Assembly: GCA_963693055.1 (NCBI GenBank)
Contig: OY843751.1
Coordinates: 4,352,001 to 4,416,000 of the forward strand
Origin: a bacterium
Lineage (GTDB): Bacteria > Zhuqueibacterota > Zhuqueibacteria > Residuimicrobiales > Krinioviventaceae
DNA length: 64,000 nt
Reading direction: 5' to 3'
Positions 1 to 27,141 of this stretch are shown here, piece by piece. Made by a program: the position numbers and the translations under genes. The notes under the pieces are model-generated. The model was not told where the DNA came from. It saw only the letters and a program-made list of their open reading frames with translations, and did no database searches. Every line of letters starts with the position of its first letter. Positions within the stretch are counted from its first letter, which is position 1.

Positions 1-92
1 TAAAGATTTTTGTGTAAATCATGAACAAGGGTTCAATAACCCGTAGGGTTATTGAATTTCGATCGCTGATTGATTTGCACACACTTTTCCAA

Positions 93-1424
93 GGGACTGT
101 AAATTCGCTTGTGTTTTAAAAACAAATATTACATTTTATTAAATACAGGAGAATTTACCAATGAAACTTACACCTGAAATTATTAAACAACTTGAAAAAG
201 ATTTTGAAAATTGCAAGACAGCAGACGATCTGCTGGGCAAAAATGGTCTGGTCAAGAATTTGATTAAGGGCATATCAGACCAAATTATGGAAGCTGAAAT
301 GACCCAGCACTTGGGCTATGAGAGACATTCTTCAGAAGGTGATAACAGTGGCAATAGTAGAAACGGTCACAGCAGCAAAACAGTGAAGACAGATTTTGGT
401 GAAATTGACATCAAAATCCCCCGTGATCGGAATGGAGAATTTGACCCGGTACTTGTCAAAAAGCACCAGCGTGATCTGGGCAAAATAGATGAAATTATCG
501 TTGCCTTATATGCCAAAGGTCTGAGTACAAGAGACATCAAAGACCACCTGGAAACACTTTACGGCCTGGACGCTTCCCCAACATTTATTTCCAATGTTAC
601 CGAACGGGTACGCGAGCTTGTCGTTGAATGGCAGTCAAGACCGTTGGATAGCGTTTATCCTATTGTTTATTTGGATGCTATCCACTATAAGATACGTGAC
701 GAAGGGCGTATTATAAACAAGGCCGCCTATACTGTACTGGGAATCAATGGTGAAGGCTTTAAGGATTTACTTGGTATTTGGATCGACCAGTCCGAGGGCG
801 CCAATTTCTGGCTGTCTGTTTTAACCGATATACGAAACCGTGGGGTTGAAGATATTCTGATTGCATGCGTAGATGGGCTGAAAGGCTTTCCGGATGCTAT
901 TGCCAGCATTTTTCCCGATACTGAAGTCCAGCTTTGTATCATCCATCAAATCCGTAACTCGCTTCGTTATGTTGCATCAAAACATCAAAAAGAATTTATC
1001 AAAGATCTGAAGCTGGTTTATCAAAGCACAACTAAAGAAAACGCTGAACTGCAACTGGATCGCCTTGAACAAAAATGGGGGGTCAAATATCCCATTGTTA
1101 TCAATTCCTGGAGAAAAAACTGGGACAACCTGTCCAACTATTTTAAATATCCCGAAGAAATTCGGCGAATGATCTATACCACAAATAGTGTAGAGGCTCT
1201 GCACCGACAGCTTCGCAAAGTCACTAAAACCAAATCTCTGTTCCCCCACGATGATGCGTTGAAAAAAATGCTGTTTCTGGCCTACAGGGATATTGCTAAA
1301 AAATGGTCGCAGCCCATCAGAAACTGGGCCTTTGTTGTTTCTCAATTTTCTATTATATTTAAAGACAGGATGAAAATCCAAATATAGCACTACTATTCAT
1401 TTACACAAAAAAGTTTACAGTCTC
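93..1424 (+). mobile_element. IS256-family insertion sequence
   Basis: Imperfect terminal IRs: gggactgtaaattcgcttgtgt (93-114) and, reverse-complemented, gagactgtaaacttttttgtgt (1403-1424). They bracket a transposase. No clear target-site duplication. Confidence 0.9.
161..1387 (+). CDS. IS256 (Mutator-type) DDE transposase
   Basis: Motifs HLGYERH, RNG..KT, PRDRNGEF, YLDA, CVDGLKGF, QLCIIHQIRN, IYTTNSVE. Confidence 0.97.
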   Translation: MKLTPEIIKQLEKDFENCKTADDLLGKNGLVKNLIKGISDQIMEAEMTQHLGYERHSSEGDNSGNSRNGHSSKTVKTDFGEIDIKIPRDRNGEFDPVLVKKHQRDLGKIDEIIVALYAKGLSTRDIKDHLETLYGLDASPTFISNVTERVRELVVEWQSRPLDSVYPIVYLDAIHYKIRDEGRIINKAAYTVLGINGEGFKDLLGIWIDQSEGANFWLSVLTDIRNRGVEDILIACVDGLKGFPDAIASIFPDTEVQLCIIHQIRNSLRYVASKHQKEFIKDLKLVYQSTTKENAELQLDRLEQKWGVKYPIVINSWRKNWDNLSNYFKYPEEIRRMIYTTNSVEALHRQLRKVTKTKSLFPHDDALKKMLFLAYRDIAKKWSQPIRNWAFVVSQFSIIFKDRMKIQI

Positions 1425-1575
1425 TTCAAAAAATCTTTATATATAATATTCAAGTACTCACTTAATCCAACAAGAGCAATGTCTATATTCATTCTCAACT
1501 ATTTACAACCTAAAAAATATTATAAGGTTGGTAACTCAAATTTAACTAATTAAATTAAATAAAAATATATAGTCA

Positions 1576-3129
1576 CTAATCATTTTTAAGAATAGTTGTT
1601 CCAAGAAATTGCTTATCATTTAAAATATCCTTTATTAACATAACAATACTTTCCAATGTATTATTATCTAAAGCAAGCCCACCTTTTAAACTATTATTTT
1701 CAGAAATCAATAAATATCCATTTCCAACTTTATCTTTACCAATATTATTTGGATTAGCAATCCAATAATTTGTATGTTTTAACAACTCTTTTAATAAATT
1801 ATCTTTTAATGTTACATATTTAATATTTTCGCCAATATTTTTTTTAGTCAATTTTCGCATCCGTTTTGCAAGTTCTAATAGCTTTTTATAATCATTTTCA
1901 TTATTTAAAAAAAACAAATAATGAGAATTTTTCGTAGAAATATTATAGAACATTGCATTAAAAAAATCTTGATCTTTATTTCTTAAAAAGTTAGGCAATA
2001 ATATCCAAAATTCTTTCAATTCTGGAAATGTACGTTCCCACTTCGCAATTTCAGACATAGGTGTAATTTTTAAAATATTTTGTGTTTTAATATATTTCAA
2101 AATACTTTCATAATTTATATTAGTTTTGCCAAGCTGTTTAGCTGTAGTAATAATTAACTGAGCTTTTATTTGATTTTTATAAAATTCATGCAAATTATCA
2201 AATTTGTTTTCAGACAATTCATAATCAGAAATATTTTTCAAAAACTTTTCCACGTTCTTATTTTTTGTACTAAAAAAATCTGGTGAAATATTTAAACAAA
2301 GCTGCAAATAATCAGCTAACAACAATGATTCATCAGGATTTTCCTTTTTACCTATCACAACATTTTCATCAACTTCTAAATTTAAATCTGTATGAATTAT
2401 TGTAAATCGCTGACTTTCATTTTGAAGTCCAATTTTTTCGATAATTGAGTTTTTCAAATTAAACTCTTGATCATCTAGCAACTCTGGCAATCTAGTTAAA
2501 ACTGGAATTATGTCAATTGGTTTTGTTTCATCAGGTTTAGAAACATTTCTAATACAATTAACTATTATTTTTGTTCCGTCAATATTTTCAGTATTATTCA
2601 TAAATAATACTACAACTTTATCTGCTAGTAATGAAGTCGCTACACCACCAATTTCAGTAATACCGGTCCTTGAATCGATTAATAAAATATCAGGATGATA
2701 TTTTTTTTCAATCATTCCTTTTAAATTTAAGAAAAAAGAAATTCCTTCTAAATCATGGTTATGATAAAATTTTTTATGCCAATCTAATTTAGATAATTTT
2801 TGCAAATAATCACTTTCTAAAGGATTTCCTGCAGGTAATAAATGAATTGAGCCACATTTTGATGTATTTTTATTTATTTCAATCACATAACGATTCAAAG
2901 CATTATCAACACTTTTATATTTAAACCAATAATAAATAAAATCAATTAACCCTTTTTTCATTTCTTCTTTATTTGTTAAAGCAAACTTGTAATGCTGACC
3001 AGGTGCTTCTAAATCTAAGTCTAAAACAAAAACATTTAAACCTATCATGGAATAAAAATTTGCCACATTCGCAACTGCTAAGGATCTTCCAACCCCACCT
3101 TTATATGAATAAAATGTTACTGTTTCCAT
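1576..3129 (-). CDS. ParA/MinD-like ATPase, KGGVGR variant, with an uncharacterised C-terminal domain
   Basis: TFYSYKGGVGRS deviant Walker A, DLDLEAPG, LIDSRTG; the ~230-aa C-terminal part is not recognised. Confidence 0.85.
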   Translation of the reverse strand: METVTFYSYKGGVGRSLAVANVANFYSMIGLNVFVLDLDLEAPGQHYKFALTNKEEMKKGLIDFIYYWFKYKSVDNALNRYVIEINKNTSKCGSIHLLPAGNPLESDYLQKLSKLDWHKKFYHNHDLEGISFFLNLKGMIEKKYHPDILLIDSRTGITEIGGVATSLLADKVVVLFMNNTENIDGTKIIVNCIRNVSKPDETKPIDIIPVLTRLPELLDDQEFNLKNSIIEKIGLQNESQRFTIIHTDLNLEVDENVVIGKKENPDESLLLADYLQLCLNISPDFFSTKNKNVEKFLKNISDYELSENKFDNLHEFYKNQIKAQLIITTAKQLGKTNINYESILKYIKTQNILKITPMSEIAKWERTFPELKEFWILLPNFLRNKDQDFFNAMFYNISTKNSHYLFFLNNENDYKKLLELAKRMRKLTKKNIGENIKYVTLKDNLLKELLKHTNYWIANPNNIGKDKVGNGYLLISENNSLKGGLALDNNTLESIVMLIKDILNDKQFLGTTILKND

Positions 3130-3141
3130 ATTTTCCTCTAT

Positions 3142-3615
3142 TTAATCTATTTTTTCACAAAAAAAACTTTTATTCCAATTTGATTTCATATAAAAATTTA
3201 AAGTTTTTTCATCAACAAATTGAAAAATATTCTCTTCATCTTGAAAAGAATCATTGTCTATACGTTTTTCCAAATTAAATGGCAAAAATTTGATTTTATT
3301 CATCTTAATAAACTCAATAAATTTTTTACTTGTACTATCTAAAAAAATAAACTTTGTTGAAATATCTGAATTAAAATCTTCAATCGATTTTTTAGTATTG
3401 AAGTGATAAAGTCTTCCTTCAAAATGAAGTAAAATTGTTCTCCATTTTTGAAAAAGAGTATACACACATTTATAATCAGAAATATCATGTGTTTTCATCA
3501 TAAAATCTTGTAGTTCATTTAGGTATTTAATAATACTTTCGGCTGGTAAATTATCCGTTTCAAAAAGAGAGTTTTCTAATATTTCGTCCTGCAACTTGAA
3601 TTCATCGATTTTCAT
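3142..3615 (-). CDS. hypothetical protein, possibly related to the ATPase C-terminal domain
   Basis: 157-aa ORF overlapping the upstream gene by 4 nt (ATGA) and ending 12 nt before the ATPase. Confidence 0.7.
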   Translation of the reverse strand: MKIDEFKLQDEILENSLFETDNLPAESIIKYLNELQDFMMKTHDISDYKCVYTLFQKWRTILLHFEGRLYHFNTKKSIEDFNSDISTKFIFLDSTSKKFIEFIKMNKIKFLPFNLEKRIDNDSFQDEENIFQFVDEKTLNFYMKSNWNKSFFCEKID

Positions 3616-4223
3616 AAAACTCTTTCTATACTATTCTTTAGTTCAGTATGCAAGTAATCCAAAATGGGTGCTGTATTAATAATTGATTTATCAGCAGCAT
3701 TTAAGATTGTTTTAATTTTGGTTTCAATAATTGCTACATATGGAGTAAATGTTTTTCCATAATTCTGATTATTATCCATTTGCACTATTTTTTTAAAAAC
3801 TTTTTTTAACTCATTCAATTCATTATACATTTCATTATAAAACAAATCAATTTTCTCTAAATTTTCTCTAATTGCATATGTGAAATATTGGACTTTACTT
3901 TCTTCAAAAACAATTTGAATCTTGTTTGGATTACATTCTTTTATAAAACTGTTATAATAATCCAACAATCTTTCCACTTTTTTATGTTTAATCGTAATAT
4001 CCGTAATATCAAGAATACTATTAACAATTTCTTCAATATTAATTTTCGAAAAATCTTCACAACCATTATGTATTGTTTTAGCATCTTTTAACATTTGATA
4101 CACAATATCAATTTTTAATAATTGACCATTCATCTGTATTAGGACATCTTCATGTTTTGAATCTTTGTTGAAGCTTTGATACACACTCATCGCACTTAAA
4201 ATAACCGATACAAGTTCTAACAT
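3612..4223 (-). CDS. hypothetical alpha-helical protein with a hydrophobic N-terminus
   Basis: 203-aa ORF with GGAGG RBS before the ATG; first gene of the AT-rich operon. Confidence 0.75.
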   Translation of the reverse strand: MLELVSVILSAMSVYQSFNKDSKHEDVLIQMNGQLLKIDIVYQMLKDAKTIHNGCEDFSKINIEEIVNSILDITDITIKHKKVERLLDYYNSFIKECNPNKIQIVFEESKVQYFTYAIRENLEKIDLFYNEMYNELNELKKVFKKIVQMDNNQNYGKTFTPYVAIIETKIKTILNAADKSIINTAPILDYLHTELKNSIERVL

Positions 4224-4375
4224 CTAAACCTCCCAACCATTCTAATTAGAAATATAATTATTAAAAAAATATATCAATACATAGTAATGCAACGAATTGA
4301 TTTTACATATTTCATTAATATGCAAAAAGTCTAAAATTTTATAATTTATGAACAGCTTTACAACAAATATAGGTT

Positions 4376-5587
4376 GAAACCTCTGAAATATTATTAGAAT
4401 CAAAGGTAATAATTTACTAATTTGCTGTATGATAAAAAAAACTGGAGTTTTACATGGGTCGCAATAGAATAAACAATGAAGACTTGTTTACCACAGCAGC
4501 AAATGAAAATTTCAAAAAGCATATAAAAACCCAAAGCAAACAAGCTCTGGAAATTATCAAAGAAAAAATTGATTGGCAAAATTTACTTGAACCCATTGAA
4601 GAACGTATTGAACAATCAAAAACCAGAAAATCAAATGCAGGCAAGCCGTCATTTGATTTGTTAGTTATTGTTCGTTGTTTTTTATTACAACGTATCTATG
4701 GTTTATCCGATCCTCGCCTGGAAGAAGAGATTGCGGATCGACGTAGTTTTCAATTGTTTCTGGAACTGACCAGTGCGGATGCAATCCCTGACGAAACCAC
4801 TATCTGCCGATATCGTGAACTATTTGCCCGTCTTGGTCTTGATAAAATACTGTTCCGGCAATTCAACAAACAGCTTGAAAAAATGGGTCTGATCGTTGGC
4901 AAAGGAACACTTGTTGATGCAACTATAAAACAAGCACAAGCGAAACCAGGAAGCAAGCGTGATCGTGATGCAGATTTCACAAAGAAACGTGGCAAAACGC
5001 ATTATGGCTACAAAGGCCATATTGGTACAGATTTGGACAGTGATATTATTCATTCTGTAGAGTTTACCAGCGCAAGTATTCACGACACAAATCTTTTTCC
5101 GGATCTGATAACAGAAAAAGAAAATGCGGTGTTCGCAGATAAAGGTTACACGAACAAAGCCCGCAAGTGCAACCTGCGAGGCAAAGGAGTCTATTGCGGC
5201 ATTCTTGATAAAGGATATAGAAACCGAAATTTGACATCAAAGCAGGTAAAAAGAAATAAGCAATTATCTAAAGTTCGGAATGCAGTTGAAAGACCGTTTG
5301 CCTTTATGAAGCAAGTATTAGATTATGATCGGTGCAGTTATTATGATATGGGCCGAAATCGTTTTGAATTTGTGATTGCAGCATGGGTTTATAATATCAG
5401 GCGTATGGTTACATTAACCACTTGAGCCATTTCGTAGGTATATAACCTATGTATTAGAGTAATGATAGTAAATTTTGTCAAAGAACAATTTTAAATGTTA
5501 TAGATTTTATAAATATTTCATTCTCTTTGGAAAATTGAACTCAATTTATTAGTTCAATATGAAAAAATCCAATATTTCAGATGTTTC
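4376..5587 (+). mobile_element. IS5-family insertion sequence
   Basis: 17-bp IRs gaaacctctgaaatatt (4376-4392) and aatatttcagatgtttc (5571-5587), one mismatch; 5-bp direct repeat aggtt at 4371-4375 and 5588-5592. Confidence 0.93.
4454..5425 (+). CDS. IS5-family transposase
   Basis: Motifs LSD..LEE...DR, PDETTI, VDAT, YGYKGH, ADKGY, R..VERPF. Confidence 0.96.
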   Translation: MGRNRINNEDLFTTAANENFKKHIKTQSKQALEIIKEKIDWQNLLEPIEERIEQSKTRKSNAGKPSFDLLVIVRCFLLQRIYGLSDPRLEEEIADRRSFQLFLELTSADAIPDETTICRYRELFARLGLDKILFRQFNKQLEKMGLIVGKGTLVDATIKQAQAKPGSKRDRDADFTKKRGKTHYGYKGHIGTDLDSDIIHSVEFTSASIHDTNLFPDLITEKENAVFADKGYTNKARKCNLRGKGVYCGILDKGYRNRNLTSKQVKRNKQLSKVRNAVERPFAFMKQVLDYDRCSYYDMGRNRFEFVIAAWVYNIRRMVTLTT

Positions 5588-5846
5588 AGGTTGTTAATTT
5601 ATTTTTAATTACATGTAAAACTTTAACAATCAAAATCAACATTTTTGTAATATTAATATAATCCCAAGACCCCTTTGCCCCCAAAGGCCCCTTACATTCT
5701 TGTAATTCAATTTACAATTATTTACAAAAATGTCAAGTGTAAAATTACATTTTCTGTACTTTTTTTCACAGATTTTTACGCAAATAGAGGAGATATTGGA
5801 TATTTATAAAGATGTTTGTTGCAGTTTTTGCACAGATTGTTGACAA

Positions 5847-6755: not shown

Positions 6756-6867
6756 AAATTCACATTTTCAAATCAAAACAACAAAACGCAAAGGATGCAG
6801 TCAAGTTAGAATTGTATACACGCAATCATCTCTGCCAAAAAAATCATTTTATATATCATCATGGATA

Positions 6868-7428
6868 TTAATAGTCAGATTGGGGAGCAGTTGAACTGAC
6901 ACATAATTTTTCATATAAAAATTCCGGTGCAAAATCAGCTCCATTTGGCCAGACAATTGTTCTTAATTCCTGATCAAGTTTAAATTTTTTAAAATAAGAT
7001 ATATCATTCAAGGGAGCAAAAATATCCCCATCCAGTTCATCTTTTAGGTCAATATGGCCACTCACGCCATCTTGAAAAGAAATATTCAATATATGTTCTT
7101 TAACATACTCTACTTTGGTAATTCTAGGTATCATATGACTACTCCAATGGTGCATTTTTTTCAAGCGGTTTTTTCTGCTTAGCAAGCTGCTGACACATAA
7201 TTTTTCATATAAAAATTCCGGTGCAAAATCAGCTCCATTTGGCCAGACAATTGTTCTTAATTCCTGATCAAGTTTAAATTTTTTAAAATAAGATATATCA
7301 TTCAAGGGAGCAAAAATATCCCCATCCAGTTCATCTTTTAGGTCAATATGGCCACTCACGCCATCTTGAAAAGAAATATTCAATATATGTTCTTTAACAT
7401 ACTCTACTTTGGTAATTCTAGGTATCAT
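6868..7428 (-). CDS. DUF2442 antitoxin-like protein, present as an in-frame tandem double
   Basis: Two identical MIPRITKV...WPNGADFAPEFLY units; ATG at 7428 just after the DUF4160 stop. Confidence 0.8.
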   Translation of the reverse strand: MIPRITKVEYVKEHILNISFQDGVSGHIDLKDELDGDIFAPLNDISYFKKFKLDQELRTIVWPNGADFAPEFLYEKLCVSSLLSRKNRLKKMHHWSSHMIPRITKVEYVKEHILNISFQDGVSGHIDLKDELDGDIFAPLNDISYFKKFKLDQELRTIVWPNGADFAPEFLYEKLCVSSTAPQSDY

Positions 7429-7483
7429 ATGACTACTCCAATGGTGCATTTTTTTCAAGCGGTTTTTTCTGCTTAGCAAGCTG
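6896..7483. repeat. apparently exact 294-bp tandem duplication (6896-7189 and 7190-7483)
   Basis: Read directly: ctgacacataatttt...cttagcaagctg occurs twice in tandem. Confidence 0.95.
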
Positions 7484-7689
7484 CCAGTAAACCAGCAATT
7501 CTTTCTTATTAAGCTCCATCCACTCTAATACAAGACCTAATGCACATTTTGGAAACCGACCGTTTATTACTCCAGTTTCTATCTCTATGGTAATATCATA
7601 TTCGCCATACACGCATGAAAATGTGCCGGAGCATGGTCCTTGTAATACATAGCTATAACAATTCCTAAAAACCGGGATATTTCAGGCAT
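7433..7689 (-). pseudogene. DUF4160 toxin-like gene with a -1 frameshift
   Basis: MPEISRFLGIVIAMYYKDHAPAHFHA, then a frameshift near 7612, then YGEYDITIEIETG...LEWMELNKKELLVYW...PLE*. Span is 257 nt, one base short of an intact frame. Confidence 0.85.
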
Positions 7690-7758
7690 TGCCAATCCTT
7701 TCAAAAAAAATCAATCGAATACTTTTGTATTACAAATAAAAGCAAAAAAAACCAAAGC

Positions 7759-20910: not shown

Positions 20911-23900
20911 TTAATTGCCTTTGCCACAGCAATTTTTATATTTTTTTCCACTTCCACAGGGACAAGGCTCGTTTCTACCAACTTTATTGGTATTAATCAC
21001 CTGACGTTGCTTTCCTGCCGGACGTCCCGGTGTGGGCTGGGCCTGTGCTTTACCTTTTGGTGGAGCCATTACCTGTTTAAACAGTTCTACCTGAGAATGA
21101 GAAGTAGATACCTTTTGCGGTTCAGAACGTCTCATTTCCCGCTCTTCAAGCTCACCGCCAACATCCAGTACGCGGAAAAGAGTGCTTACAATATCTCTGT
21201 TTGTACTGTCAATCATTTTCACAAACATTTTATAAGCTTCACTCTTGTACTCGATCAATGGATCTTTTTGTCCGTAACCACGCAAACCAATACCTTCACG
21301 CAGCTCATCAACACCACTCAAATGCTGACGCCAGTTTTCATCGATTTTTTCAAGGATATAATACCGCTCGTATCTGGCTACCATAGATTCGCCAATCTCA
21401 TCCACACGGCGGCGGTAAATGCTTTGCGCCCAACTACTCAGCGTATTCATCACCGTATTGGGATCCATTGCCTCACCGCTTTCATCATGCAGGCGTGGTG
21501 ATTGTCTGAATACCAGACGGCATTCCGATTCCAAACGACGAATCTGGGTTGCATCAAGATCGTCATTATTACCCAGCACACCGCTAATCATTTGATAGAT
21601 TGTATCATCAATCATGGTTAATACAGAATCAAAAACAATATCTGTACTAAGCCGCTCCTGATGGTAACGCTCAACCCGGTCTGCATAGGTCTTGTAGAAA
21701 CTTAAACCCCATGCAACCAGTTCTTCACGATAAGAGTTTAATGCTTCACGCTCACGAGATGCCGGTAGAATCTTGTCCGGTTTACCCATAAACATATTCT
21801 GAAAACTTGATGCCAGCAATTGTTGTGTTGATTCGGCATCTTTATTTTCTTTGATTACATTTTCAAACCGTGCTATAATTGAAGATTCTATCAATTCTTC
21901 AATGGATGTATTGGCAAGCAACAATTGGTTATATACGGTAATATTTTCTCGCAAGTGTTCCAAATAGGTATTTCTTGCCCACCGCATTGTCTGGCTAACA
22001 AGGTCAGGCCAGTCTTTTAATGCCTCAGCAGGTTTAAATGCTTCTCCAAATACACTCTGCAAAAACTCTGCCTGTTTTTCTTCCAGTTCCAAAACATCAC
22101 GGCTATGATATGCCGATGCCTGTATAAAACTATGTTCAACCACTGCATTAATATATTGTACAGATGAAAAATAACCCAGAATTCGGTTCCGGTACAACAT
22201 TTCATCTTTACCAGCAATTGCCAGGCCGTCAAGCCATTCCTGAACTTTTTTTATAACTTTTTCACGTCGAATGGTGCGCATTTCATTTTCACCAATGGGA
22301 GGACGCTGCATAAATATCTTTTCCAGATCACTCAAAAAGTTTTCCGAATTCCAGGTTGCCGCTGGCGCGTCAATTGGTAAATGACGGTTAACCAAACCAT
22401 TTACATAAATTTCCAGAAAAGTGTTCAACGGAATGGTTTTAAAAAGAATACTATCTATTGCTTTTTGCCCGTTTTCTACCTGAGAATTATAAACAGATGC
22501 AGCCCATTCTTTTAACCTTGATTCAAAAACATCAGCAGTATCAATATTGCTATTCTCAAGCCAATCTGGTTTCTGCTCAAAAATACGCTCCATCTCATAA
22601 CCAATGCCCGAGATATTCCATTTTGAAATATCTCGGGTACCAGCGTTATGCAGTCTTATTTTCAACAATACCAGCTCATCTATAATATCTTGAATATTAC
22701 AATACCCGGTAATACGGTGACGCTCCTGCATTTGATAGAGGTGGCGCTGTTCTTTCAACTTTTCATCAACCCAGGTTCTCAAAGTCTCCCGAACACCACT
22801 AACATCCTGGCTTTCAAGTTCAGATTTGGTAAAATCAGGTTCTGCACCAAAATACCGTTTCAGATTTTCAAACAATTCATCCAGTTTCCAGGTTGAACGA
22901 TCATCTTCTTCATCAATAAAGCGTTTGATCTTGGCTTCTACAAAATCTTCCGGCTGTGCAAAACCCAGCAGGTTTTGTCGTCGTTTATATATAATCTTTC
23001 TTTGTTCATTCAATACGTCATCATAATCCAGCAAATGCTTACGAATTTCAAAGTTGCGTTCTTCAACTTTTTTCTGAGCGCGTTCAATGGATTTTGTGAT
23101 CATAGAGTGCTCAATGCGCTCTCCCTCATCCATACTGCCTAAACGACTCATAATATTTGTAATGCGGTCAGAACCAAACAGACGCATGAGATCATCTTCC
23201 AATGACAGATAAAAACGTGAAGAACCCGGATCTCCCTGACGTCCCGCACGACCACGTAACTGCCGGTCAATTCGGCGGGCTTCATGCTTTTCAGAACCAA
23301 TGATCTGTAAACCACCTTTTTCAATTACATCTCTGGTAAGCTTGATATCCGTACCACGACCCGCCATATTGGTCGCAATGGTTATGGATCCCGGTAGACC
23401 TGCTTTGGCAACAATTTCAGCTTCGTTTTTATGATATTTGGCATTCAATACCGTATGAAAGCGTCCCGATTCCAGCTCTTTGGTAACATCACCCTTTTTC
23501 AGCCAGTTGGCAACAGGAATACCGCGCTGGGTAAACAAATTACTCAGATGCTGAGAAACATCAACGGAAACCGTACCAATCAGAACCGGTAGTCCTTTTT
23601 CATGATACTCTATGGTATCTTTAATGATTGCATCATACTTTTCAGCCTTTGTTCGATAGATCACATCATTCATATCATCACGAATAACCGGCCTATTGGT
23701 TGGCGCAACAATAACATCCAGGTTGTAGGTACTGTAAAATTCCTGCGCTTCTGTTTCGGCAGTACCAGTCATACCTGCCAGTTTATTATATAATCTAAAG
23801 AAATTCTGCAATGTAATGGTAGCCAGTGTCTGGCTTTCTGCCTGCACTTCTACACCTTCTTTAGCTTCCAACGCTTCATGCAAACCGTCACTAAAACGGC

Positions 23901-26900
23901 GTCCCGGCATTAAACGACCGGTAAACTGATCAACAATCATAACCGCTTTATTACCACGTTTTGCACCGGTACGTCTTAATTCATTGTCTTCCACTGCCTT
24001 GACCACATACTCGACATCATTATGATACAATGTATATGCCCGCAGCAACTGGGATATATTTTGCACGCGTTCTTCCACGTGGTTATAATCCTGCCAGATC
24101 TTGTCTCGCTGTTGTTCCAGCATTACCCGTGGACGACGTTCAAAATGGATACGGAACCAGTGTTCAATCTCTTCATTACGCATTACAAAATTCGGCATAT
24201 GTGCGTTAGACAGCAATTCAGTCATCTCGCGATCATCCAAAACAATATGACGTGAACGTAAATGCGTTTTTTCTTTTGGAAGCAAGCCTTGCAGCTCTGC
24301 CCGACTGCCGGCTTTTTTGGTACTTAGCTGCATAATCTCATCACGAAAACTCTGATACTCGTCCCGGTAATTGAAATAAGGTAATCCGCCAATCAACAAA
24401 GTACGGGCAGCTTTTTCAATGCCTTTGGGTATTTTATTTTCATCCAAAACAAACAATGCATCAACATCCACATTCGGATCGCTTGCAGCTTCTTTTAATT
24501 TATCTACAACCTGACTGCGCTCAAAAAACAGACCCTGCAAATTCTTGCGGCCGTTTTCAGTCAATCCTGTAATATTGACAGTCTTAAAAACGGGGTCCTC
24601 CGGATGCAAGGTACCACTAAACTGGAAATACCTGCGAAGCCAGCGCTGGCGCTCTGTAAGGGTTTGATCAGTATCTGCCAGGTTTGTAAAAATCATCTGT
24701 ATCGTTTCATTGAGGCGCTCAACCTCTTCAAACCGACGTGAAGCACTGATAATCTCTGCAGGCAAGTTGAATTTATCCTGCAGATGTGCATCCAGCTTTA
24801 GCTTGTTAGACAGTTCATTTTTACCGGTATCACGGCTCCAGGATTTAATTTCTTTATCTACATCGGCAAAATTCGCGCCCATCAAGCGTTCCAATTCAGC
24901 GTCTGCCAATCCGGCCACATGTCCATTCGCTTCAGTTTTAAAAATAGCCTCGGGCTTGTCTTTATAATCACCCAGATGTTTTTCAAAGTGACGTATTACG
25001 GTTTTACTTTCACTACTGAAATTTGAAAGGCATTCAACACCCAGGGAGGTTATATCAAACCTGCCGGTTTCCATAACATAAAAATCATTATTTTTAGGAT
25101 CTTCAAGGGTTTGAATATGTTCATAAAGTGCTGTTACATCTCTATCCATATCTTCTACAGCAAGAACATGAGCAGAATAATCATAATCTGCCTGGTTCAA
25201 AGTATCATCCAACTGCTTTTGGATCTGCTGGTCACGTTCTTCAACCAGGGTTCTGTCAGGCAGTACATACAGATCAGGATTACCACCAAGCAGAGCAATA
25301 CGGCCTTTTTCAGTAATTTGATTTAAAACAGCGCCATTGTCTTTTAACTCGAAATATTCCTGCTTGATATTTTCAATAGAGGTTAAATCTTGCGTTGAGG
25401 CAGGATTAAGAAGCGCAATCAATCCATTAACAGTAGGCAGCAGCATAGGATCGCCAGATTTTTGCATAGCCAATACCGCCAGTTTACCTTCTTGGGTCAA
25501 ACCGGTAATTGCGCCAAACTGTTTTTCAGTTTCAAAAAAGACGTCGGTTAATTCTCTTCTTCTGTCAACAAGCGGACGCTTCATAACCGGTTCAGCATCT
25601 ACGTCTGCTTCTTCTCGCACCATATCTAAAAGCTTTACAAAAGCATCTACAATAGCTTCATCATATTTACCGTTTGCATTGGATTTCAGAAAATCAATTC
25701 CCGTAGATGACATGCTGTTTACAGCCCTGTCCATCTTTTTGGTCATACCATAAAACTGCCGCCATACAGAGGCCTTGTCACCTTTATTATTTTGCAAACG
25801 AGTATTAATTTCTTCAGGTAAATTATTCAATTGAAGAGAAAGCTGCTCAATGGGTTCAAATTCAGACTCGGTAACCCCGGATTGTATACCAATAAGCGCG
25901 GCTTTACCCGCAAGAGTCAATCCGTTACAGGTACCGGTAATGGAATCATGTGTAAAATAGATGGAACGGTTCTTTTGCTCGCTGATTTTCTCAAGCGTTG
26001 CGCTCAATACATCCAGTTTTTGAATTTTATGAACAATATCCTGGTCGCGGCCGCCCGAGAGGAAAATACGTCCCTTTTCGGTAATATCTATAACATGGCT
26101 CTTTTCATCAATGGTGAAATACAAATCCGCATCAACTTCACCCATTTGCTTGTTTACTTCATATTGGCCCTGAATTCGTTCAATCAATTTCTTGACCCAA
26201 AATTCCGAAGTCAGCAGTTCCAACAGTTCTTTGTTTTTAGGATCTCCACGATGGACCTGAAGAATTTTGATTCCTGCTTGTTCTTCATCGTTCTCGAGCA
26301 ACTCTTTGCCTTCACGCAACAGTTGTTGCACCAGCTCGTTCTGTCGTTTAGCCAGGTTCTCTACAGTGGGTTTTAATTCTTTATAAATATTCTTGGGTGC
26401 TCCAACAGCTCCCGATATAATCAATGGTGTTCTGGCTTCATCAATCAAAACACTGTCCACTTCATCTACAATTGCGTAATGTAAGGGTCGCTGCACAACA
26501 GACCAAACATCCTGAGACATATTATCACGCAAATAATCAAATCCAAATTCGTTATTGGTACCATACGTAATATCCGCATGATAAGCCGCGCGGCGTTCTT
26601 CTGGAGATTGATCTCCAAAAATTGCAGCTACCGTTAATCCCAAAAACTTGTAAATTTCGCCCATCCATTCACAGTCACGTTGGGCCAGATAATCATTAAC
26701 AGTGATAAGATGCACACCCTTGCCTTCTAACGCATTCAGATACAAAGGCATAGAGGCTACAAGGGTTTTACCTTCACCTGTTGCCATTTCAGCAATTTTC
26801 CCATCATGCAGTATCATACCACCCAATATCTGCACATCATAAGGAATCATGTCCCATTCTATTTCCTGCCCGCGAACCATCCATTTTTTACCGCGCAACC

Positions 26901-27141
26901 GTCTACAGGTATCTTTAACAACGGCAAAAGCTTCGGGTAAAATATCATCAAGGGTTTCCCCCATACGTAATCTATATTTAAACTCGTTGGTTTTCGCTTT
27001 TAATTCATCATCAGATAGATGCTCATATTCTTTTGCATAGTCATTCACCGTAGCAACTAATGGCTCTAACCGTTTAACTTCACGTTCGGTGCTTGTGCCT
27101 CCCATAACTTTGGAAAGCATTTTTTCAATAGACTTTAACAT
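20911..27141 (-). CDS. secA: preprotein translocase ATPase SecA, greatly enlarged (2076 aa) by repeated PPXD and HWD modules
   Basis: [64 protein letters not shown]-terminal [13 protein letters not shown]. Confidence 0.97.

Follow-up and report, generated by a model that had tools for sequence, protein, structure and literature searches.

Kaur et al. (eLife 2020, PMC7159879) described MinD/ParA-like domains in conflict systems as 'predicted to be inactive'. In the parts of that paper available to us, these inactive domains are grouped with the 'cell-division related' effector domains of vWA-MoxR systems and are treated as effectors that are joined either to AP-ATPases or to the vWA component. 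The class of ParA-like ATPases that carries the variant P-loop KGGVGR is already known computationally, through an NCBIfam model, a PADLOC candidate system and perhaps the work of Kaur et al. Here we report on a three-gene locus, genes A, B and C, built around an ATPase of this class. It lies in a 64,000-nucleotide stretch (hereafter the window) of contig OY843751.1 from a bacterium of the phylum Zhuqueibacterota. On balance, and judging from sequence comparison, we favour the view that the trio is a horizontally acquired and rare three-component conflict module of the immunity type, dependent on nucleoside triphosphates and centred on the KGGVGR ParA-like ATPase. Three elements are new here. 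One is a predicted non-catalytic domain of the phospholipase D (PLD) fold that recurs in proteins of the STAND, TIR, caspase/CHAT, trypsin and cyclase types; the others are family B of small partner proteins and a putative helical docking module (A) with different heads in different organisms.

Organization of the locus

The three genes form a compact group (Table 1). A and B overlap by 4 bases (ATGA), 12 bases separate B from C, and GAGG precedes the ATG of gene C; gene A starts with GGGAGG placed 5 nt before its ATG and has a stop codon directly upstream. GC content is 0.22-0.26 over positions 1401-4400 and 0.40-0.50 in the flanks, while GC content at third codon positions (GC3) is 0.16-0.19 in genes A, B and C against 0.40-0.55 in five neighbouring genes. 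The original prediction, made from the DNA letters of the window, had described three tightly coupled genes (of 203, 157 and 517 aa) in DNA more AT-rich than its neighbours and lying between two insertion sequences (IS); all of this holds, the two elements being of the IS256 and IS5 types.

By our arithmetic, about 9% of random codons would be stops at the base composition of the locus, and frames of 157-517 codons thus stay open far longer than chance would allow. Homologues exist for all three proteins. A scan for promoters and terminators returned 45 promoter-like sites against 30.6 expected, which is uninformative in DNA so rich in AT.

Table 1. Features of the three-gene locus and its immediate surroundings (window positions; ORF, open reading frame)
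Feature	Position	Strand	Description
IS256/Mutator-type IS	85..1424	+	transposase 161..1387, Pfam Transposase_mut 2.2e-120; inverted repeats; downstream of gene C
AT-rich variable segment	1425..5745	.	trio, non-coding flanks and inserted IS5
Gene C	3129..1576	-	517 aa ORF; ATPase domain, helical linker, C-terminal PLD-like domain
C-terminal domain of C	1579..2067	-	residues 355-517; predicted PLD-superfamily fold
ATPase domain of C	2275..3129	-	residues 1 to ~285
Gene B	3615..3142	-	157 aa ORF
Gene A	4223..3612	-	203 aa ORF
IS5-type IS	4375..5587	+	transposase 4454..5425, Pfam DDE_Tnp_1 1.6e-27 and DUF772

The KGGVGR ATPase domain

Residues 1-192 of protein C match the NCBIfam model NF047398 (AAA_KGGVGR) with 152 bits against a cut-off of 90 (E 2.3e-44), and a six-frame search of the genome gave 155 bits for the same model. 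The motif YSYKGGVGRS occupies residues 7-16, and R15 aligns with the P-loop lysine (GAGKS) of Staphylococcus aureus CapB, the likeness to CapB among PDB sequences being confined to residues 3-67 (E 3.7e-5). The KGGVGR motif is invariant in five of five full-length homologues, as are the individual residues K10, G11-G14, R15, D37, D39, D152, R154, T155 and G156. K10 is the signature lysine of the deviant Walker A motif, and the aspartates of Walker A' and B are present too. Apart from the exchange of lysine for arginine the nucleotide site is thus kept, and from these residues we infer a binding-competent switch that hydrolyses slowly or not at all.

Curated models for partition and division ATPases score below their cut-offs (ParA_partition 14.8 against 180, minD_bact 13.4 against 212.9, minD_arch 15 against 201.75), the BcsQ model far below, and the models for BY-kinases likewise miss theirs (TIGR01007 20.1 against 108.05, TIGR03029 16.6 against 313.8). 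The neighbourhood was scanned with Pfam (E <= 1e-5) over 30 ORFs, reaching about 18 kb leftward and 21 kb rightward, and no ParB, MinC or MinE family was found among them. No MinD-type C-terminal membrane-targeting helix was seen in C. A role as a ParA/MinD partition or division ATPase was rejected because the P-loop lysine is replaced, the curated cut-offs are missed and parB, minC and minE are absent from the 30 ORFs; a BY-kinase of the CapB/Wzc type was rejected because both of its model cut-offs are missed. The original prediction had seen here an arginine in place of the Walker-A lysine, no parB or minCE nearby, and a KGGVGR-type variant in place of a partition ATPase, and each of these points is confirmed.

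PADLOC model PDC-M28B also matches protein C (E 6.9e-31), over profile positions 129-306 of 438 only, that is, the ATPase core, and every other KGGVGR ATPase checked matches it as well. Full-length matches to C were four proteins only, with 32-36% identity. The KGGVGR class itself is large (2324 members at E <= 1e-3 among 7999 candidates scored), and its members, mostly about 600 aa long, differ in their C-terminal regions, among which are TPR, FGE-sulfatase, GGDEF/EAL, TIR_2 and Peptidase_C25.

Across the phylum, 11 of 167 genomes, that of the window among them, have NF047398 matches above the cut-off; the window's genome has a single one, and the 18 other genomes of its family have none. Six of 11 other places were examined, the five left out being 395-459-aa ORFs of one family (f15), like the locus L039. 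A TIR gene lies immediately upstream of the ATPase gene in four of the six. One of these (L040) reads TIR_2, KGGVGR with WD40, then ThsA_Macro; another (L041) reads SLATT_1, TIR_2, a 1428-aa protein of KGGVGR, two TIR, NACHT and TPR domains, then NUDIX; in the remaining two (L042 and L044) a TIR_2 gene precedes KGGVGR fused to TIR. The partners in L043 and L039 have no recognised family. Three of these same-phylum ATPase proteins carry TIR themselves. Since TIR stands directly upstream in four of six loci, the KGGVGR class belongs among immune-type systems, and the four pairs of TIR_2 and KGGVGR ATPase look like undescribed TIR-based systems. These loci, together with the architectures of the homologues, agree with the earlier statement that KGGVGR ATPases tend to be fused to variable effector or sensor domains, and they show such domains in adjacent genes as well.

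The C-terminal PLD-like domain

The C-terminal ~160 aa of protein C are covered by no Pfam or NCBIfam model. Of 1.84 billion representative proteins, a profile of this domain finds 158 at E <= 1e-3, of which 56 reach E <= 1e-10; against PDB sequences it gave nothing meaningful (best E 0.099, unrelated), and none was found in viral contigs. An AlphaFold2 model from a 58-row alignment has core pLDDT values mostly of 80-97. Comparison of this model with 48,161 chains by VIA-align returned PLD folds in all of the 28 best rows, with Z falling from 10.4 to 5.8, and the next fold class reached Z <= 5.4. The closest chain was FAM83/BJ-TSA-9 (Z 10.4, root-mean-square deviation 3.5, 141 aa aligned), followed by Zucchini (10.1), TrmB, NucT and a bacterial PLD (9.6 each), SauUSI (9.4), Nuc (8.9), BfiI (8.4), Tdp1 (7.0) and MITD1 (6.0). 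Foldseek found the same PLD families with probability 0.94-1.00 and E from 1e-3 to 1e-1, and TrmBL2 stands beside TrmB among the structural neighbours.

Conserved columns of the domain are W364 (58 of 58 rows), W375, P379, F381, N396, Y406, F407, I457-A-N-P460 and G471. By topology, the strand that matches the catalytic HxK(x)4D motif reads H452-T-N454-Y-W-I-A-N459-P in protein C. Column 452 holds histidine in 5 of 25 non-gap rows, column 454 holds D (22) or N (17) among the 58 rows and never K, and column 459 holds N in 47 of 58. The modelled fold and these columns lead us to predict a non-catalytic PLD-like domain that lacks the HKD residues.

Active PLD folds function as two-lobed dimers. 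In a Cyanothece metagenome-assembled genome (MAG; L011 3987-6536) the homologue of C, 849 aa long, has two PLD-like domains in tandem and so resembles classical PLD enzymes in its two-lobed layout. Together, the dimers of active PLD folds and the tandem Cyanothece copy suggest a pair of PLD-like domains as the functional unit.

Pfam families fused to the domain were recorded for 66 proteins scanned out of 150 listed. They were nSTAND1 in six, HTH_XRE-type in five, CbiA/ParA-type, TIR_2 and Trans_reg_C in four each, nucleotide cyclase, Trypsin_2 and CHAT in three each, Caspase and Lon_C in two each, and Metallophos, DUF676 and EAD1 in one each; 28 of the 66 showed no other family. Trypco1 genes precede two metagenomic proteins with the domain, a pairing that the consulted text of Kaur et al. 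2020 (PMC7159879) describes for trypsin-bearing conflict proteins.

Proteins A and B and conservation of the trio

Proteins A and B have no family match in Pfam or NCBIfam and no PADLOC match at E <= 1; their homology was established by synteny-guided comparison. Readable DNA upstream of a relative of gene C was available for the Cyanothece MAG (L011) and two metagenomic contigs (L012 and L014); the contigs of two more relatives (L013 and L018) are too short. In each of the three, a gene for about 150-165 aa lies upstream of the ATPase gene, preceded by a larger gene. With the window counted, all four readable loci show the order A-module protein, B, ATPase with PLD-like C-terminal domain on one strand, the B family gene always standing between the other two. 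The trio therefore does recur as a unit, a point on which the original prediction had staked itself. Relatives of A and B were not found in the six other KGGVGR loci of the phylum, so that both go with the PLD-like subtype of the ATPase.

Members of the B family share a conserved N-terminal region of about 90 aa with the motif KW..LL.F. By BLASTP, protein B matches its counterparts in L012 (E 2e-8), L014 (2e-6) and L011 (3e-4), and a hidden Markov model (HMM) built without the window's copy scores it at 39.3 bits, with 2000 shuffles never exceeding 10.3. A word-index search of 5.8 billion clusters gave a family of five proteins including that of the window. Among 400 sampled genomes from the phylum of the Cyanothece MAG there was one further match (E 2.9e-4), which has three internal stops and is regarded as spurious.

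For protein A, a word-index search returned A itself alone. Comparison with the larger upstream proteins of the relatives shows that only their last ~190 aa are common to each other and to A. Residues 136-330 of the L014 protein align with A at 22% identity over 198 aa (BLASTP E 6e-5), an HMM from the three relatives gives A 34.9 bits, where 2000 shuffles yield no more than 12.3, and the family alignment has a common C-terminal motif, ADK..I...AP.L. In front of this module the relatives differ. The L014 protein has a head matched by the PADLOC models 'Effector PN-superfamily' (CBASS-type, 5e-8) and PDC-M60C (2e-9); the head of the L011 protein has sub-threshold matches to DUF4062 (5e-5) and TIR_2 (2e-4); the L012 protein (761 aa) comes after genes encoding VMAP-C (1.8e-11) and MoxR-type AAA_5 (6e-9) domains. 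Being homologous to the helical tails of proteins with effector-like heads, A looks like a docking or output module devoid of an enzyme.

A itself is all-helical, with no enzymatic domain and a short hydrophobic N-terminal helix. It has no head, and MLELVSVILSAMSVYQSF alone stands in that place. The N-terminal segment MLELVSVILSAMSVY is the most hydrophobic stretch of the protein (Kyte-Doolittle 19-mer mean 1.15; Eisenberg 18-mer <H> 0.49, muH 0.25), and the usual threshold for calling a transmembrane helix lies above these values. AlphaFold2 gave a bundle of long helices, with a best pLDDT of 75.7 and 46.7-62.2 in the other four models. Foldseek matches to this model were generic helical bundles only (E >= 0.013, TM <= 0.56), among them designed bundles, chemoreceptor 4HB domains and soluble forms of alpha-pore-forming toxins, and are too unspecific to name a fold family. 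ESM Atlas clusters for A and for the C-terminal domain of C were unnamed or implausible, with scores <= 0.93, and were not used. The hydrophobic N-terminal helix and helical bundle that had been described for the 203-aa protein are thus present, the bundle at moderate model confidence, while the proposal that A is a membrane-targeting effector is not supported: the helix falls short of a transmembrane call, A corresponds to the C-terminal tails of larger proteins, and the effector-like domains lie in the N-termini of those proteins.

Chromosomal site and insertion sequences

The flanks of the trio are 91-96% identical in a sister species of the same genus (G001). Homology to the G001 chromosome breaks off 30 bases ahead of the window and picks up again at position 5746. 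At the same site G001 holds a different cargo of 5.4 kb (L027 650-6096; GC 0.18-0.27) with two ORFs unrelated to the trio, one of 673 aa with a hydrophobic N-terminal region and one of 1115 aa with a signal-peptide-like start; neither has a Pfam or PADLOC match. The site thus behaves as a cargo-exchange hot spot at which AT-rich cargo is swapped between sister species. The C-terminal domain of C was found in none of the 40 other genomes searched from the same genus, family and order. With its low GC3, its absence from relatives and the differing cargo of the sister species, the islet looks to be of foreign origin. No integrase, replication or partition-site genes are present in it.

The IS5-type element is inserted in the AT-rich non-coding leader 151 bp upstream of gene A. 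It has inverted repeats of 18 nt (94% complementary) and is bordered by a target duplication, AGGT, at 4371-4374 and 5588-5591. Ten further places in the genome hold this element at 96-100% identity, and the IS256-type element has eight further copies at 99-100% identity; being multi-copy at such identities, both look like recent independent insertions into AT-rich, non-essential DNA. A composite transposon was rejected, as the two families differ and the IS5-type element has its own 4-bp target duplication. Elsewhere in the genome (G000:C1:5372859-5375506) an IS5-type copy is split at its positions ~1053-1061 by an IS256-type copy (5374007-5375346), and this nested insertion indicates that both elements were active recently.

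Proposed function and alternative explanations

In the reading that we favour, an immunity-type conflict module, C would combine sensor and switch, B would be its cognate adaptor, and the helical module of A would be a docking tail for a swappable output head. The non-catalytic PLD-like domain would form the sensing, dimerising end. A ligand or target bound there would shift the ParA-like domain towards its nucleotide-bound sandwich dimer, which with arginine in the P-loop would act as a slow or non-hydrolysing switch. The switched-on ATPase would then engage B and the helical module of A and thereby cluster whatever sits on the N-terminus of A. In relatives, a TIR-like or PNP-nucleosidase-like head on A could lead to abortive growth arrest; in this genome, where A has a short hydrophobic helix only, the output may be weak, different (membrane-directed) or lost. 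We infer all binding and activation steps of this mechanism. A bolder form of the proposal, which we hold to be unlikely, takes the PLD-like domain for a widespread and so far unnamed immune sensor that reads a phosphate-bearing ligand at its dead HKD cleft, the trio for a new ATP-gated defence with swappable heads on A, and the short Ser-striped hydrophobic helix for a replacement of the TIR or PNP head that makes the clustered A bundle membrane-damaging. If true, the ligand would be a nucleotide signal or invader nucleic acid.

Several observations weigh against a conflict module with C as its switch. The original prediction had placed the trio in a candidate defence system and looked to defence islands for support; a defence island was rejected for this genome, as the neighbours are housekeeping genes and PADLOC found no system within about 18 kb either side of the trio. 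A has no enzymatic and no clearly membrane-spanning effector, the DNA upstream of it holds no remnant of an effector head domain, and the output may be missing from the system in this genome. The IS5-type element 151 bp upstream of gene A may have severed the operon from its promoter. The alignments of A and B are shallow (17-29% identical), and the family is too rare for selection for function to be assessed. Equating TNYWIANP with the HKD strand follows strand order and fold topology, not residue-level superposition. As to the ATPase, PMC7159879, in the parts available, reads MinD/ParA-like domains as inactive effectors, not switches; in L041 the KGGVGR domain is N-terminal to TIR-TIR-NACHT-TPR, the usual effector position; and no bench study of a KGGVGR ATPase was found in the literature searched.

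Some of these points are equally those of a decaying or incomplete passenger, a conflict-type cassette that came without its effector head or lost it, was then hit by IS and is of no use to the cell. We regard this as a possible explanation, though a fairly unlikely one. It would account for the missing N-terminal domain of A, which all three relatives have, for recent insertions in the leader 151 bp upstream of A (IS5) and just downstream of C (IS256), for the absence of the C-terminal domain of C from 40 of 40 relatives searched, and for the location in a swap-in/swap-out spot. It fits poorly with three intact ORFs that have proper ribosome-binding sites and coupled junctions, with an ATPase and a PLD-like domain that keep every conserved residue, and with the clean beginning of A, which has its own Shine-Dalgarno sequence and upstream stop and no pseudogene remnant of a head in front of it. 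If the window's copy is inert, it still marks a variable hot spot for the exchange of AT-rich cargo between sister species.

The contrast between switch and effector can also be turned round: the KGGVGR ATPase would then be the effector itself, a non-hydrolysing MinD/ParA mimic that on release or activation jams cell division or chromosome segregation, with A and B as antitoxin- or chaperone-like regulators. Kaur et al. 2020 (PMC7159879), in the text consulted, class such domains as effectors, the domain of L041 stands at the N-terminal, effector-side position of a NACHT protein, the B-C pair of L012 comes after genes for VMAP-C and MoxR and for a large protein whose C-terminus is the A module, and the window's trio offers no other candidate effector. 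We nevertheless consider this quite improbable. The ATPase is usually joined to sensor-like C-termini (WD40, TPR, FGE-sulfatase/lectin, PLD-like), bona fide effectors such as TIR accompany it, which fits a switch or scaffold better, and neither a MinD-type membrane-targeting helix nor, among the 30 ORFs scanned, a ParB/MinE-type partner was found. Least probable in our estimate is a function outside conflict, in which the ParA-like switch and a ligand-binding PLD-like domain would serve accessory signalling or regulation, much as the PLD-like domain does in TrmB-type regulators, or maintenance of a small mobile islet. Such a function would suit the housekeeping neighbourhood, the TrmB and TrmBL2 among the structural neighbours, and the fusions of the C-terminal domain to HTH_XRE, Trans_reg_C and nucleotide cyclases, which are one-component signalling architectures. 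Against it, the identifiable fusions are mostly of immune or apoptosis type (nSTAND1, TIR, caspase, CHAT, trypsin with Trypco1, EAD1), the A relatives carry TIR-like or PNP-nucleosidase heads, and the islet has no integrase, replication or partition-site genes.

Neighbouring genes

On the left the neighbours include a GH38 mannosidase, YitT, a 2-hydroxyacid dehydrogenase and a subtilase. Those on the right are a metalloenzyme-superfamily protein, DUF2442, SpoIID, Era, an alanine symporter and ProRS, together with PTS/HPr kinase, a recombinase of the Phage_integrase family, a DNA topoisomerase and SecA. A lone DUF6602 gene (L020 4026-4823; G000:C1:4338026-4338823, reverse strand; Pfam 4.9e-20) lies some 14 kb from the trio on the left side; it matches the PADLOC model PD_DExK (5.5e-26) as well as NucC-type effector models, and no partner system is visible beside it. 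Other single-gene PADLOC matches nearby are generic (GTPase, subtilase, AAA lid).

Three further observations were made beside the trio. The ORF at 6868..7479 contains a perfect tandem duplication of 294 bp x 2.0 (window 6896-7484, 100% matches), and its protein carries two identical DUF2442 copies; window positions ~6794-7755 have no match in the sister genome G001. The SecA ORF (window 20911-27141, reverse strand) encodes 2075 aa, about double the usual length, with SecA_DEAD, P-loop and Wing/Scaffold each in two stretches and ~600 aa between them to which no assignment was made; no intein or other family was found in this ORF at E <= 1e-5. Between the IS5-type element and the metalloenzyme gene, a G+C-rich palindrome (cccctttgcccccaaaggcccc) lies at 5669-5692 amid non-coding DNA of 26% GC, and it may be the terminator of the flanking metalloenzyme gene.

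Comparison with known systems

The original prediction recognised no named system with this layout. That is so for the trio as a unit, for which PADLOC matches the ATPase domain only and the literature search found no description of the three-gene unit, of families A and B or of a PLD-like module shared by conflict proteins; it is not so for the ATPase class, which has its NCBIfam model and its PADLOC candidate. The search also found no paper on PDC-M28 or on KGGVGR ATPases in this sense, and the parts of PMC8195603 and PMC10907252 available to us held nothing specific on ParA-like ATPases.

PDC-M28 is the nearest named candidate. The N-terminal 190-285 aa of C match both NF047398 and PDC-M28B, whereas A and B match no PADLOC model and PDC-M28A was not found among the neighbours. 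With A and B unmatched and the PDC-M28B match confined to the ATPase core, the trio is not PDC-M28, and is related to it at the level of the ATPase domain only. The systems of Kaur et al. share with the trio SIMIBI ParA/MinD-like domains that are predicted to be catalytically impaired, a likeness by description only, and share with the KGGVGR and C-domain loci a polymorphic conflict context with TIR, trypsin/Trypco, caspase and EAD partners. As far as the text of PMC7159879 could be searched, its source-data tables apart, it contains no stand-alone three-gene unit and no mention of HKD, PLD, phospholipase D or TrmB. Toward the vWA-MoxR/VMAP systems in particular, the likeness lies in the L012 relative, whose B-C pair follows VMAP-C and MoxR-type genes; the window's islet and neighbours, by contrast, have no MoxR, vWA or VMAP genes.

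The TIR and KGGVGR pairs found in the same phylum resemble the trio in having an upstream output-type gene translationally coupled to a KGGVGR ATPase with a long and variable C-terminal region, and they have ThsA_Macro, SLATT and NUDIX as neighbours. They differ in lacking the B family, the A-type module and the PLD-like domain, and the window for its part lacks TIR. No TIR match exists in A, B or C that would link the trio to Thoeris-like TIR defence.

Non-catalytic PLD-fold domains, such as those of FAM83, MITD1 and TrmB, serve as binding or assembly modules, and in TrmB-type regulators the PLD-like domain lies beside the sugar site. The C-terminal domain of C is like FAM83 DUF1669, MITD1 and the C-terminal region of TrmB/TrmBL2 in its predicted PLD fold (Z 10.4, 6.0 and 9.6) and in the lack of HKD residues. 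It differs from them in having no detectable sequence similarity and in its own motifs (W-E, FWvxxPxF, N, YxYF, IANP, G).

In its general plan the trio is comparable to STAND/NLR-like NTPases, with a modular C-terminal sensor, a nucleotide-dependent oligomerisation module and swappable effectors, and the PLD-like domain is itself found at the C-terminus of nSTAND1 proteins. The NTPase of the trio, however, is a ParA-like dimeriser of the SIMIBI class and not a STAND AAA-type oligomeriser, its effector arm is on a separate polypeptide, and an extra small protein stands between the two. If our reading is correct, the locus would offer a tractable system for the role of arginine in place of lysine in the P-loop, and a SIMIBI-type dimerising switch would join the nucleotide-gated immune scaffolds, which are now mainly STAND and AAA+.

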